DNA of 64,000 nucleotides from Eledone cirrhosa (GCA_964016885.1 OZ024741.1:327546001-327610000); one strand, 5' to 3'. Shown: positions 54,009 through 58,409, numbered from the stretch's first letter. Made by a program: numbers and translations. The notes: generated by a model from the sequence alone, not told the origin.

Positions 54009-55834
54009 GGGGATTCCTTTCTTTGTTTCTGTGCCTTTCCTTTCTTCTATCCTACGCAATTTTGTTTCATTTATATAAATGGAAAAGAATGAAACGAAAT
54101 TTAATTTCTATCTCTTAGTACGGCTGATACCTAAATATAAGTATGGATACGTACATACATATATGTTTACAGACGTAAAGTAGTATGTATATATATACAT
54201 ACATGCACACATATATATATGTCCGTATGGGTTTACCGTACATTTATTATAATGTTCGGTTTGTTTGTTAACAAACAGCCCGAATTACGCCGTACAGTAC
54301 TCGGCAAGCATCGTCGCACTTTCTCCAAGACTGATACAGAAACGATGTACTAGTTTCAAGCTTATTATCTATCGCCAGCATCGTATACCTCTCTGTCAGA
54401 TGATTGAACGTTTCAAAAGTATACACTTTCCTTATGCATATTAACGGCTGAGCAGCCTAATTTGCATATCGAGTGAGTTAGTCGGCCGGGCATACTAAAA
54501 ACGCGTGTGTATGTTGCTTGTATTTGTATACCCATGGCCAGTGTTTTCGCGTATGCTTCTGTATGTACGTATATGGATGCGTGTATGTATATATATTTAA
54601 TTTCGATTACCTCTGTATTTTATTTATTTATTCTTCACTCTGAAGCCGAGAACCATTCGGTTTCCTAGATATAATTTTAGTCTACGACTTCAGTTATACC
54701 ATTTACATGGTTTTGTCTTTGCGTGTAATTGTTCTCAACGGTCCACATAATTACGTATTATACTCGTTGTTTTTCGTTCGTCTCCACGAACCAAAGTATA
54801 GTCTTCCTGTCTTCCTTCGGTTCCGACGTTTTTTGAAATATTCACTTCTGCGTTCACAGATTTACTTTTTTAGTTTCAGAAGATCCGTTAAGGGTGAAAG
54901 CAGCGATTCTTCTTAAGTTTAATCTGTTATTTTAATAAATATATGCTCTACGGTTCTTATATATTTGATATATATTTATCCTTATCGAGCCCTCTTTGGA
55001 TTTTAGTCTTCAAATTTATTATTATTACTATTTGGCTCCCTCGGTTGAGCACTCTATTGACTTATATTCATCATGCAGAAACAACATCTGAATATTTCTA
55101 CAAATATACCCGTTATTTTAATATATATATGTAAGTATGTATGTATACGCACTTACATATATGTATACAGACGTACAGTAGCATGCATATATATATATAT
55201 ATGTATATATATATATATATATATATATATATATATATATATATATATATACACACATATACATACAGGTACACATATATATATATGTACGTATGTGTTT
55301 AGCGGACGTTTATTATAACGCCCGCTTTGTCCGTTTGTAAACAAGCGGACAGCCTGAATTTATGCCGTACGGTGTTAAGGCAACCACGTCACCTTTTTGT
55401 TCAACACTGTCACATGAACCATGTACTAGTTTCAAGCTTCATAGCTATCATCAGCACCGTATACCCTTCTGCCAGATGGTTCAACGTTCGAAAGGATATA
55501 CTTTCCTTATGAAAATTAACGGCTGAGCAACCTAATTTGCATATCGAGTGAGTTCAGTCGGCCAGGCGCACCGAAAACGATAAGTTGTAATAGAATGAAA
55601 ACGAAATTTCATTTCTCACTCTTAGACCGGCACTTACTTAAATGTAAGTATGTACGCATACGCACATACATATATGTACACAGACGTACAGTAGCATGCA
55701 TATATATATATATATATATATATATATATATGGTCGACTGAACTGACTCGATATGCAAATTAGGCTGCTCAGTCGTTAATTTTCATAAGGAAAGTACATA
55801 CTTTCGAACGTTCAACCATCTGGCAGAAGGGTAT

Positions 55835-55877
55835 ACGGTGCTGATGATAGCTAAGAAGCTTGAAACTAGTACATCGT
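55835..55877 (+). ncRNA. Type I hammerhead, family B
   Basis: acggtg-CTGATGA-t agct aaga agct t-GAAA-CTAG-TA-catcgt. Confidence 0.75.
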
Positions 55878-56189
55878 TCCTGTGTCAGTGTTGAACAAAA
55901 AGGTGACGTGGTTGCCTTAACACCGTACGGCATAAATTCAGGCTGTCCGCTTGTTTACAAACGGACAAAGCGGGCGTTATAATAAACGTCCGCTAAACTG
56001 ATACGTACATATATGTATGTGTAGCTGTATGTATATGTGTGTGTGTATATATATATATATATATATATATACATATATATATATATATATATATATATAT
56101 ATATATATAGATATATATATATATATATATATATATATATATATATATATATATATATATATATATATATATATATATATATATATACA

Positions 56190-56760
56190 CAGTACAACCT
56201 GTCTCATGGTCGGGTCGTTGGCGACTAAACTGGCAACCCCACCAAGGTTTCTTGGTGAGGAGGGTGACTTTGGACATCCTGCAGGACTAAAAACAAAACC
56301 TGTCGAAGGGCAAAGGAGCTCTTAAGAGTCAATGGCCATCCGAAATCACTGGGAGAGATGACCCCTTAACCTTTGTCAAGGCAGAATTCTAAGAGAAGGA
56401 AAACTCTGATATAACACCTGCAACCCTGATGGTATCCAATGATGTTGACTTGTTCTTCTTTTTGGTAAATATCATCTTGGTTAAGAGAGTGGGACTGGCT
56501 TTGTGCAGTGCCTTTGCTCACTATAAAAGCTTCACAGCACAGGCATTGCTTTATATCTGGAGATCTCTCTGCACTTGTCATCACATGGTACCATGGGCCC
56601 AGCACCATGTGTCAATAATTGTCACAAGTGTAGTGTTTGTACCAGAGTTTTCAAGTCGCTGGCTGGACTAAAAAGTCACACTCGTTCAGCGCATCGGTAG
56701 GGGTTCTCCTACATGGATATAAAGTAGTGGCCGTACTCGAAAACGAGTTGGCAGCCACCA
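56190..56760 (+). mobile_element. Second copy of the RTE-5'UTR-like repeat, inserted in the (TA)n spacer of the family B array
   Basis: Reverse-complement match to about 50427-50998. Confidence 0.6.
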
Positions 56761-57034
56761 TATATATATATATATATATATATATATATATATATATATA
56801 TATATATATATATATATATATATATATATATATATATATATGTATATATATATATATATATATATATATATATATATGCATGCTACTGTACGTCTGTATA
56901 CATATATGTATGTGCGTATACATACATACTTACATTTAAGTAAGTGCCGTACTAAGAGTGAGAAATGAAATTTCGTTTTCATTTTATTACAACTTATCGT
57001 TTTCGGTGCGCCTGGCCGACTTAACTCACTCGAC

Positions 57035-57072
57035 ATGCAAATTAGGCTGCTCAGCCGTTTATTTTCATAAGG
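57035..57072 (+). promoter_or_regulatory. Octamer ATGCAAAT + PSE-like element upstream of the family B hammerhead
   Basis: ATGCAAAT at 57035, 55753 and 57597, each 88 nt before CTGATGA. A similar module is present in family F. Confidence 0.4.
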
Positions 57073-57116
57073 AAAGTATATACTTTCGAACGTTCAATCA
57101 TCTGGCAGAAGGGTAT

Positions 57117-57159
57117 ACGGTGCTGATGATAGCTAAGAAGCTTGAAACTAGTACATCGT
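57117..57159 (+). ncRNA. Type I hammerhead, family B
   Basis: Identical to 55835-55877. Stem I extends via tggcagaagg/cctgtgtca with an internal loop. Confidence 0.75.
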
Positions 57160-57678
57160 TCCTGTGTCAGTGTTGAACAAAAAGGTGACGTGGTTGCCTT
57201 AACACCGTACGGCATAAATTCAGGCTGTCCGCTTGTTTACAAACGGACAAAGCGGGCGTTATAATAAACGTCCGCTAAACTAATACGTACATATATGTAT
57301 GTGTACCTGTATGTATATGTGTGTGTGTATATATATATATATATATATATATATATATATATATATATATATATAGATATATATATATATATATATATAT
57401 ATATATATATATATATATATATATATATATATATATATGAAATGCTACTGTACGTCTGTATACATATATGTATGTGCGTATACATACATACTTACATTTA
57501 AGTAAGTGCCGTACCAAGAGTGGGAAATGAAATTTCGTTTTCATTTTGTTACAACTTATCGCTCGCGGTGCGCCTGGCCGACTGAACTCACTCGATATGC
57601 AAATTAGGCTGCTCAGCCGTTAATTTTCATAAGGAAAGTATATACTTTCGAACGTTCAACCATCTGGTAGAATGGTAT

Positions 57679-57721
57679 ACGGTGCTGATGACAGCTAAGA
57701 AGCTTGAAACTAGTACATCGT
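57679..57721 (+). ncRNA. Type I hammerhead, family B
   Basis: acggtg-CTGATGA-c agct aaga agct t-GAAA-CTAG-TA-catcgt, 562 nt after the previous copy. Confidence 0.7.
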
Positions 57722-58409
57722 TCCTGTGTCAGTGTTGAACAAAAAGGTGACGTGGTTGCCTTAACACCGTACGGCATACATTCAGGCTGTCCGCTTGTTT
57801 ACAAACGGACAAAGCGGGCGTTATAATAAACGTCCGCTAAACTGATACGTACATATATGTATGTGTACCTGTATGTATATGTGTGTGTATATATATATAT
57901 ATATATATATATATATATAAAATGTTATATTTTGCTTAAAGAAGAACAGAAACAGCAACAAAACAAGATTACCAGGTGATTTACTTTTACTTGTCGTTAC
58001 TTCATCTTAAAGTCCATTTTGCATTTTGCCTTCTATCTCTTTCAACGTTATATATGTATATGTGTGTGTGTATATGTGTATGTGTGTATCATCGGTATCT
58101 ATGTGTATATTATGTTCGTTGAGCATGCGTGCCCATGTGTGTGTGTGGGGGTGGGTGAAGTTGTATGCATGTGCGAATGCATGTATATATATATATACGT
58201 ATATACGCATGCACATTTGCATAATCACATATAAATCACCTCCAGGGCTGGGCACCTGTGATTTCTTCCATGTGAAAAGAAGTGAGAGAGAATTAAAGAG
58301 AGAGAGTGGGAGAATGGATCCAACTATTAGACGTGTACTTCATTTATTGACCTCGATAATCTAAAGGGTGCCATTGATCTTAGCGTCATTTGAAATCTCT
58401 AACAACAAG

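Follow-up and report, generated by a model that had tools for sequence, protein, structure and literature searches.

Metazoan non-LTR (long terminal repeat) retrozymes are described as short non-coding tandem repeats which carry a canonical type I hammerhead ribozyme, have a GC content under 50%, have no LTRs, no primer binding site (PBS) and no polypurine tract (PPT), yield a highly paired predicted circle and coexist with Penelope-like elements (PLEs) (Cervera and de la Pena 2020, PMC7229834; reviewed in PMC7761336). According to the 2020 review, they seem to lack a promoter as well as any motif pointing to a helper element (PMC7761336). The principle of self-promotion in hammerhead repeats is not new, with precedents in newt satellite 2 and in Schistosoma. 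The Sm-alpha/Sj-alpha repeats of Schistosoma, which resemble short interspersed nuclear elements (SINEs), harbor tRNA-type internal boxes, and satellite 2 of newts and salamanders, a tandem hammerhead repeat with dimer cleavage, reportedly contains an octamer/PSE (proximal sequence element) promoter of the small nuclear RNA (snRNA) type inside the unit, transcription starting a short distance upstream of where cleavage occurs. The Schistosoma repeats, whose type I hammerhead has a bulged stem I, appear to be transcribed by RNA polymerase (Pol) III, the promoter of the upstream unit serving the next one, and for newt satellite 2, Pol II appears to be the transcribing polymerase (PMC6765202). 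For PLEs, internal initiation of reverse transcription, AT-rich targets and inverted truncated copies have been published (PMC11167929, PMC8557442), and a tandem and inverted pattern with preference for (TA)n is described for Neptune in particular (PMC8557442). Neptune and Poseidon elements combine partial-tandem and inverted 5'-truncated insertions at (TA)n targets with an internal reverse transcriptase (RT) start, a fixed 3' end and a type I hammerhead (PMC8557442, PMC11167929, PMC4209133).

Here, we present a computational analysis of a stretch of 64,000 nt from the genome of the octopus Eledone cirrhosa (GCA_964016885.1 OZ024741.1:327546001-327610000), referred to as the window. It contains six copies of a non-coding repeat unit, designated family B, in which a type I hammerhead is combined with a module resembling the upstream promoters of host snRNA-class genes and with a 3' junction resembling that of a co-resident PLE. 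An original prediction made from the sequence had described this unit as a self-promoted retrozyme mobilised by Penelope elements. By its features, the unit is very probably a non-LTR retrozyme; it occurs as dispersed dimers to multimers without open reading frame (ORF), and has a 6-bp helix I with bulge, a 4-bp helix II and a short palindromic helix III. GC content is 0.42-0.51 in short central stretches of the unit, and the array maps, made from 30 B1 and 30 B2 best-hit loci, contain no paired LTR structure; no explicit search for PBS or PPT was made. With 430-560 nt compared to 150-450 nt (PMC7229834, PMC7761336), the unit lies at or above the reported upper size of retrozymes because of its (TA)n tract. 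It further differs from them by the promoter module and by the fixed 3' junction. The G10.1-C11.1 pair, present in the related family C, is replaced by U.U in family B.

The full B1 unit at 57438 was taken as reference copy (Table 1). Three copies lie on the + strand, one is inverted head-to-head, and two distant ones are found on the - strand. Of the three head-to-tail units originally described, only the last two are directly tandem, since a 571-bp repeat intervenes before them, and the two distant inverted copies belong to the sister subfamily B2 and have damaged ribozymes. The lack of coding capacity stands, as the longest ORF starting with Met across two tandem units has just 89 amino acids (aa), and so does the distance of 562 nt between the last two predicted cleavage sites. 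The unrelated 571-bp repeat has an inverted twin at 50427-50997. Its copies are 96-98% identical, it gave 29 matches in 1 Mb of random DNA, is sometimes tandem, and sits in (TA)n.

Table 1. Features of family B copies and of the neighbouring Penelope-like element in the window (percentages, identity to the reference copy)
Feature	Coordinates	Strand	Remarks
Full B1 unit, reference copy	57438..57900	+	Array ends here in internal (TA)n tract
Full B1 unit	56880..57338	+	Directly tandem to 57438 unit across (TA)n tract; 96.5%
5'-truncated B1 unit	55731..56056	+	Start ~21 nt upstream of octamer; 96.9%; TATA changed to TACATA
Full B1 unit	55237..55697	-	Head-to-head with 55731 copy across (TA)16; 93.7%; stem I partly mutated
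59-nt head of following unit	55184-55126	-	After the -55697 copy
B2 copy	54080..54491	-	81% over 54491-54193; core CTGGCGA
B2 copy	63691..63988	-	80%; octamer TATTCAAAT; cleavage triplet GCA for GUA
Internal (TA)n tract of unit	57328..57438	+	Length variable (~10-110 nt in B1, short in B2)
Unrelated 571-bp repeat	56190..56760		Inside (TA)n tract of array, between first and second + units
Upstream element TATGCAAATTAGG-CTGCT	57596..57613	+	13-mer containing octamer
Upstream element, other copies	57034, 55752	+	
Upstream element, other copies	55543, 54468	-	
TCAGC block	57613..57617	+	26 nt ahead of TATA; host U1/U2: TCAGT, 26-27 nt
TATA box GTATATAC	57638..57645	+	Host: GTATAWAWA at -30
Predicted transcription start	57669	+	Y/A at TATA+30; 57107 and 55825 in other + copies
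Type I hammerhead	57669..57725	+	Predicted cleavage after 57715
Type I hammerhead of preceding unit	57107..57163	+	Predicted cleavage after 57153
Type I hammerhead of truncated unit	55825..55881	+	Predicted cleavage after 55871
Fixed 3' junction of arrays genome-wide	57551..57566	+	After 57559; putative RT start
5'-truncated Penelope-like element	59420..60757	-	RT end, CIDKKCITC linker, GIY-YIG, 3' hammerhead, end in (TA)n
Fragment of same Penelope family	53760..54066	-	3' untranslated region (UTR)/pseudo-LTR (pLTR)

A genome-wide copy search, suggested along with the original prediction, revealed a highly abundant repeat. A first-look DNA search gave at least 2341 candidates for B1 and at least 1781 for B2, in short arrays dispersed over many contigs. 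In a sample of 100 evenly spaced 10-kb stretches from contigs C1-C11 of the 3.0-Gb genome, the repeat was matched in 13 stretches and covered 1.18% of the bases, with 25 core-spanning units (one of them family D) per 999,200 nt. This corresponds to about 70,000 units and about 1.2% of the DNA, a unit count which is uncertain perhaps twofold because units cluster. A set of 92 units (107 before removal of near-duplicates, with 5 family C units set aside) was clustered into B1 (43 units), B2 (33) and B3 (4), leaving 12 singletons. The idea of B2 as an "old" subfamily was dropped, its copies deviating by 1.8% from the column majority compared to 1.9% in B1, values subject to best-hit bias.

The random sample also contained two families with the layout of B, family C (59% identity to B) and family D (70%), at loci L154, L164, L201 and L200:1021-1189. 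Family E, found at L164 (11 units), L208 and L161, is made up of tandem units of 310 bp which bear a textbook type I hammerhead and a different promoter, a U1/U2-type module. In addition, a 322-bp tandem family, probably the family A of the original prediction, is located at 62847-63553 (+) and at loci L188 and L204. Its U1/U2-type module is complete (AATTT..TCAGT..TATAAG) and its hammerhead-like core is a variant one (TTGATAA..GAAA); its arrays end in (TA)n, and partial inverted relatives are present at about 723-1229.

As predicted, an intact hammerhead core occurs in four copies in the window, with CTGATGA (55841, 57123, 57685 and -55454) followed by GAAACTAGTA. In the predicted fold of the 57438 unit, an outer stem I, a UAU bulge and a 6-bp stem I (57679-84 with 57716-21) with a long extension are combined with CUGAUGA (57685-91), a stem II of 4 bp with tetraloop on a C.U base (U.U elsewhere), GAAA, and a 2-bp stem III formed from palindromic ACUAGU, which corresponds to a canonical type I hammerhead by the definitions of PMC4209133. 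Folding z-scores of the 95-nt hammerhead region were -2.9, -3.3, -1.2 and -0.1 in the four copies. Rfam gave a weak match of the unit core to Hammerhead_HH9 (19.8 bits, gathering threshold 52, E 0.02), and a scan of the whole window detected no hammerhead, only microsatellite-driven miRNA noise. Among the 92 units, 76 have an intact core and 88-91 retain each of the six inner pairs of stem I, one pair being seen as G.U, A-U and U.G; one outer stem I pair is kept in just 40. The first stem II pair, originally suspected of lowering activity, is U.U in 89 of the 92 units and C.U in the 57438 copy. At this base, family C has G-C with a compensatory change and family E has A-U. A palindromic stem III is shared by all related families (ACTAGT in B, ACATGT in D, ACGCGT in E). 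The axolotl HHR_Amex2, which also has U.U at the base of stem II, is reported to cleave to 22% as a monomer and much better as a dimer (PMC7229834). Self-cleavage of the family B hammerheads is a prediction. Further hammerhead-like cores of other, PLE-like types were noted as an inverted pair at 62624 (-) and 62683 (+), at 39947 (+) and at 49911 (-).

For the promoter comparison, host loci of U2, U1, U6, U6atac, MRP, RNase P, tRNA-Sec and 7SK (L031-L079, L238) were used, leaving U4, U5, U11, U12, U7, U3, SRP, Y and vault RNA genes outside the comparison of spacings. Three host layouts were distinguished. The first, in U1/U2, consists of AATTA at -90, TCAGT at -57 and a TATA-like box at -30; the module AATTA..TCAGT..TATA is present in 9/9 U1/U2 regions and in 0/8 others. 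The second, in U6, U6atac, MRP and tRNA-Sec, consists of TATGCAAATKAG at -78 and TATA at -30, and the third, in 7SK and RNase P, has TCAGT 32-33 nt ahead of TATA.

Each unit harbors an octamer-containing 13-mer, a TCAGC block and a TATA box at fixed spacing, and in each of the three + copies ATGCAAAT precedes the core by exactly 88 nt, as stated originally. The 13-mer was recovered with 0-2 mismatches at -77 to -80 in tRNA-Sec (both top loci), MRP (1/1), U6 (4/7 distinct upstream regions) and the top U6atac locus (1/6), each with TATA at -30 or -31; U1/U2 do not have it, with 3-5 mismatches at best in 8 distinct upstream regions. A weight matrix built from the 7 host 13-mer sites scored the element at 20.3, within the host leave-one-out range of 12.2-26.5, and 23 of the 24 sites scoring at least 16.3 in 1,994,664 random positions were B, C or D units. 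TCAGY precedes a TATA-like box by 26-27 nt in 9/9 U1/U2 regions and by 26 nt in the element, a match with a chance of about 0.5% (3-nt window). In the whole genome, a tight host-type promoter pattern was matched four times. Three of the matches are known genes, and the fourth has neither TATA nor a recognisable RNA.

Judged by these motifs, the module is a hybrid, with an upstream block of the U6 class and the TCAGY-TATA spacing of U1/U2. The upstream element TATGCAAATKAG of the U6 class is there, and the octamer-TATA distance is 42-43 nt in B, C and D instead of 46-48 nt in host genes; the AATTA block at about -90 in U1/U2 is absent from B1 and B2 and present in 2 B3 copies; and the held-out 7SK locus and RNase P have no proximal 13-mer. 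No host gene among the eight types compared has the spacing of the element. The snRNA-type octamer/PSE module of the original prediction matches host genes in its 13-mer, with the octamer as part of a proximal element rather than a vertebrate-like distal enhancer. Of the proposed PSE, only the TCAGY start matches host U1/U2, and its quoted form is matched exactly by just two copies, 57438 and -55697, the 55731 copy having TACATA for TATATA. The start had been placed just upstream of stem I; the predicted position lies just inside its 5' strand, 46 nt before the cleavage site. The proposed comparison with host U1/U2/U6 promoters therefore came out largely in favor of the module, apart from its hybrid spacing.

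Between subfamilies, no majority difference falls in the 18-mer, the TATA box or GAAAC..GUA, compared to 13/62 in the head and 32/90 in the tail; as the entire central 190 nt are conserved, the unchanged promoter blocks are only modestly informative. In families C and D, the 12-13-mer, the YCASY block at +16 and TATA at +43 are all kept (the YCAGY block reads CCACT in family C). This conservation of blocks and spacing argues for function, and it bears on an explanation in which the unit is an ordinary non-LTR retrozyme whose promoter-like blocks are relics or transcription-factor sites and whose RNA stems from read-through. Read-through, as proposed in PMC7761336, could alone feed the cycle of some 70,000 units, and the element spacing is unlike that of every host gene examined. 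In contrast, three blocks persist at fixed spacing in families only 59-70% identical, the predicted start coincides with a Y/A inside stem I in subfamilies B1, B2 and B3 as well as in family D, with a deviation of no more than 1 nt in family C, and the sister repeats A and E bear a complete U1/U2-type module where B, C and D have the U6/U1 hybrid. We regard read-through as an unlikely sole source of the RNA, and a working promoter inside the unit as probable.

Because the TCAGY-TATA spacing is that of U1/U2, Pol II would be somewhat likelier than Pol III: we give it about an even chance, Pol III may be considered with less confidence, and the remainder falls to an inactive unit. Each B unit has 2-3 T4 runs, confined to the final quarter of the predicted transcript; they do not settle the polymerase. 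Family C has two T5 runs, with two alternative 3' ends just past them. An Rfam scan of the unit core up to E 10 gave no tRNA match; no dedicated box A/B search was made. Promoter-less U6atac copies, likely retrocopies, were noted directly behind (TA)n tracts (sampled loci L071 and L072). One contig of a sequencing run labelled as another organism (depth 5.6) covers 57458-57790 with 24 differences, none in promoter blocks, and was not used as support.

The fixed 3' end together with scattered 5' ends, the polarity found for the arrays, is a mark of target-primed reverse transcription. Termini were chained over the window, the random stretches and the array-map loci, the latter without overlaps. 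A fixed junction accounts for 52 of 84 array 3' termini and the internal (TA)n tract for another 24, with 8 at other positions; the 77 5' truncation points are scattered over unit positions 26-367, inverted arms being common. Arrays comprise 2-8 units. The junction is located about 38 nt upstream of the octamer, mostly runs into (TA)n, and has the family form ACAACTTAT/CGTTTTC (the slash marks the junction), as at 56989-57004, mutated to CGCTCGC in the 57438 copy. The true end of the arrays is therefore this junction and not the cleavage site. In the window, the + array ends at an internal (TA)n tract, and the -54491 B2 copy, followed by the next head at 54186-54080, ends at the fixed junction (~54075). 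Fixed 3' end, 5' truncation, inverted copies and (TA)n targets together form a Penelope-like integration signature, and because (TA)n is the insertion site, target-site duplications are indistinguishable. Tandem units and variable (TA)n spacers would agree with a satellite or minisatellite propagated by duplication at the DNA level and harboring a chance hammerhead. This explanation is largely refuted by the end polarity, and since the short arrays are dispersed over many contigs, inversions occur and the ribozyme is conserved, we consider it hardly credible.

The candidate helper is a Penelope family with 21,901 candidates in the genome and top matches of 92-95% identity, whose open frames reach 1,407 aa. 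Its RT and GIY-YIG are joined by a CX4CxxC linker, by which, on the linker alone and without a tree, the family would be called Neptune-type. Of its ends at 20 loci, 7 read ACAATAT/(AT)n, 10 continue as TAT/CGGTTTC or a variant, and 3 have no end. The junctions of the retrozyme (TAT/CGTTTTC) and of the Penelope family (TAT/CGGTTTC) are alike. An Anolis PLE starts reverse transcription inside its own RNA (PMC11167929), and an internal start of this kind would account for a fixed end which does not coincide with the cleavage site. Furthermore, the 53760..54066 fragment adjoins the 3' junction of the -54491 B2 copy within 7 nt, which could reflect a single template switch. The Penelope elements, originally described as abundant locally, are so genome-wide and less so in the window, where Pfam detected two weak GIY-YIG fragments outside the LINE (long interspersed nuclear element) block among 113 ORFs (34766-35110, 59819-60148). 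The former, on the + strand, is probably a second Penelope remnant. A related family (54-71%) with the same 3' end motif was seen at sampled locus L177.

The unit was considered as pLTR of the abundant Penelope family and rejected as such. Besides one inserted B2 copy, its homology to the 20 loci amounts to only 13-17 nt (E 0.29), matches to RT or endonuclease (EN) flanking 58 repeat loci (some overlapping) have no consistent position, and the hammerhead is of another type, being canonical and bulged instead of the long-stem-II PLE type (definitions in PMC4209133). The unit also differs from Neptune and Poseidon elements by the absence of an ORF, by a canonical instead of a minimal hammerhead and by its snRNA-class promoter module. 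It might instead be the solo pLTR of an autonomous Penelope family missed by the sample, as its integration marks are those of PLEs; no ORF with RT and GIY-YIG flanked by the unit was found in a sample of loci, which was not exhaustive, and the same observations on homology, flanks and hammerhead type make this source very improbable. A PLE probably serves as helper, on the evidence of ends and junctions. The helper element is only inferred, as the likeness is short, was noticed afterwards, and APE-type LINEs are also present.

Regarding the template, 34 of 65 within-array unit pairs are identical over 341 nt, compared to 1 among 1646 pairs taken from different arrays. In three arrays, with 3, 5 and 7 units sampled, no internal differences were seen, the average divergence among arrays being 4%. 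Identical arrays fit rolling reverse transcription of a circle, and would fit homogeneous master arrays or later duplication as well. Folded as circles, cleavage-to-cleavage monomers are predicted to be 64-74% paired (z -8 to -14), with the hammerhead stems formed in the minimum free energy structure of 1/3 circular monomers and partly in another. A different course would be that a self-promoted unit is mobilised by Penelope or LINE proteins from uncleaved linear multimers of master arrays, without circles and with a weak or dispensable hammerhead. The U.U pair in nearly all units and mixed variants inside some arrays would suit it, and in vitro the Anolis PLE accepted RNA which had not been processed and could do without its hammerhead (PMC11167929). 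Opposed to this are the core and palindromic stem III, kept across five families with compensatory changes, and the arrays of 3, 5 and 7 identical units, which differ from all other arrays. We judge linear multimers to be rather improbable, and a circular template to be moderately favored by the identity pattern.

The full reading, which we hold with some confidence from these data, is that of a self-transcribing retrozyme which is cleaved as a dimer to give circles and re-inserted by a Neptune-type Penelope. RNA would start 30 nt past TATA inside stem I and then read the (TA)n tract and the promoter of the next unit. Neighbouring hammerheads would pair through ACUAGU and release a cleavage-to-cleavage monomer which holds the promoter, and a host ligase would close it into a circle. 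The Penelope RT/GIY-YIG protein might then nick (TA)n, and its RT might begin at the internal RNA site TAT/CGTTTTC, resembling its own TAT/CGGTTTC, and run round the template. The tandem layout would let an upstream-type promoter survive retrotransposition.

Several observations weigh against this reading. The U.U pair and the 2-bp stem III predict weak cleavage, and the predicted pairing of stem III between copies in the dimer of the window is only about 0.2. All 34 identical pairs come from three arrays, 0/24 within-locus pairs of the B2/B3 set are identical, and most other arrays have diverged units, including those of the window with 14-20 differences over 341 sites. One array has different (TA)n variants in units 1-2 and 3-4, which a single circle cannot explain, and array-private shared variants are few (0-1 per array). 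The high folding z-scores owe partly to self-complementary (TA)n and palindromes. The junction likeness comprises 6 letters out of 7 informative ones and is not shared by families A and E, nor is it accompanied by longer homology to Penelope; folds of the junction regions revealed no convincing common structure. The host promoter comparison yields a hybrid without exact host counterpart, the 7 matrix sites were picked for showing the motif, and an ATG pre-filter preceded the scan. A wider view is put forward only tentatively: at least five hammerhead retrozyme families, each of which would hold within its unit an upstream promoter of host small-RNA genes and mimic the internal RT start of a Neptune Penelope, might form a SINE-like class based on external promoters, circles and Penelope machinery, which would then likely be general among animal retrozymes.

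Compared to the precedents, this invertebrate repeat differs from newt satellite 2 by a proximal octamer block of the host U6/tRNA-Sec class, the presence of a TATA box, several families with different promoter classes, and PLE-type ends; from the Schistosoma repeats it differs by an upstream snRNA-type promoter. In the literature, outside subscription journals, Repbase and Dfam, we found no octopus retrozyme, no snRNA-promoter retrozyme, no invertebrate hammerhead repeat matched to host snRNA-class promoters, no several families with two promoter classes, and no shared PLE junction. The word "cephalopod" is absent from the main texts of PMC7229834 and PMC7761336, the supplement of the former possibly listing cephalopod retrozymes, and "ribozyme" is absent from the main text on Octopus vulgaris repeat annotation (PMC13282606).

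The family is a concrete candidate for two points which the 2020 review left open, the promoter and the helper motif (PMC7761336), and the Penelope protein class sharing the junction form is reported to work in vitro by now (PMC11167929). If the reading is true, it shows a way for a mobile element to take along its upstream promoter, which retrotransposition would normally leave behind, and about 1% of a large genome would be explained. The analysis also defined, as a by-product, the promoter motifs of U1/U2 and of the U6 class in this genome, which are useful for expression vectors.

Besides these repeats, the window harbors a stop-free 503-aa frame without Pfam match at 51030-52541 (+), starting in a (TA)n tract, and a Tc1/mariner-like remnant at 40799-41960 (HTH_48, below cut-off). 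The long RT ORFs at 13-31 kb belong to APE-type LINEs, which form a tandem run of copies of about 6 kb at about 13200-31400 (+) with Exo_endo_phos, RVT_1 and zf-RVT domains and copy spacings of 6072, 5613 and 3880.

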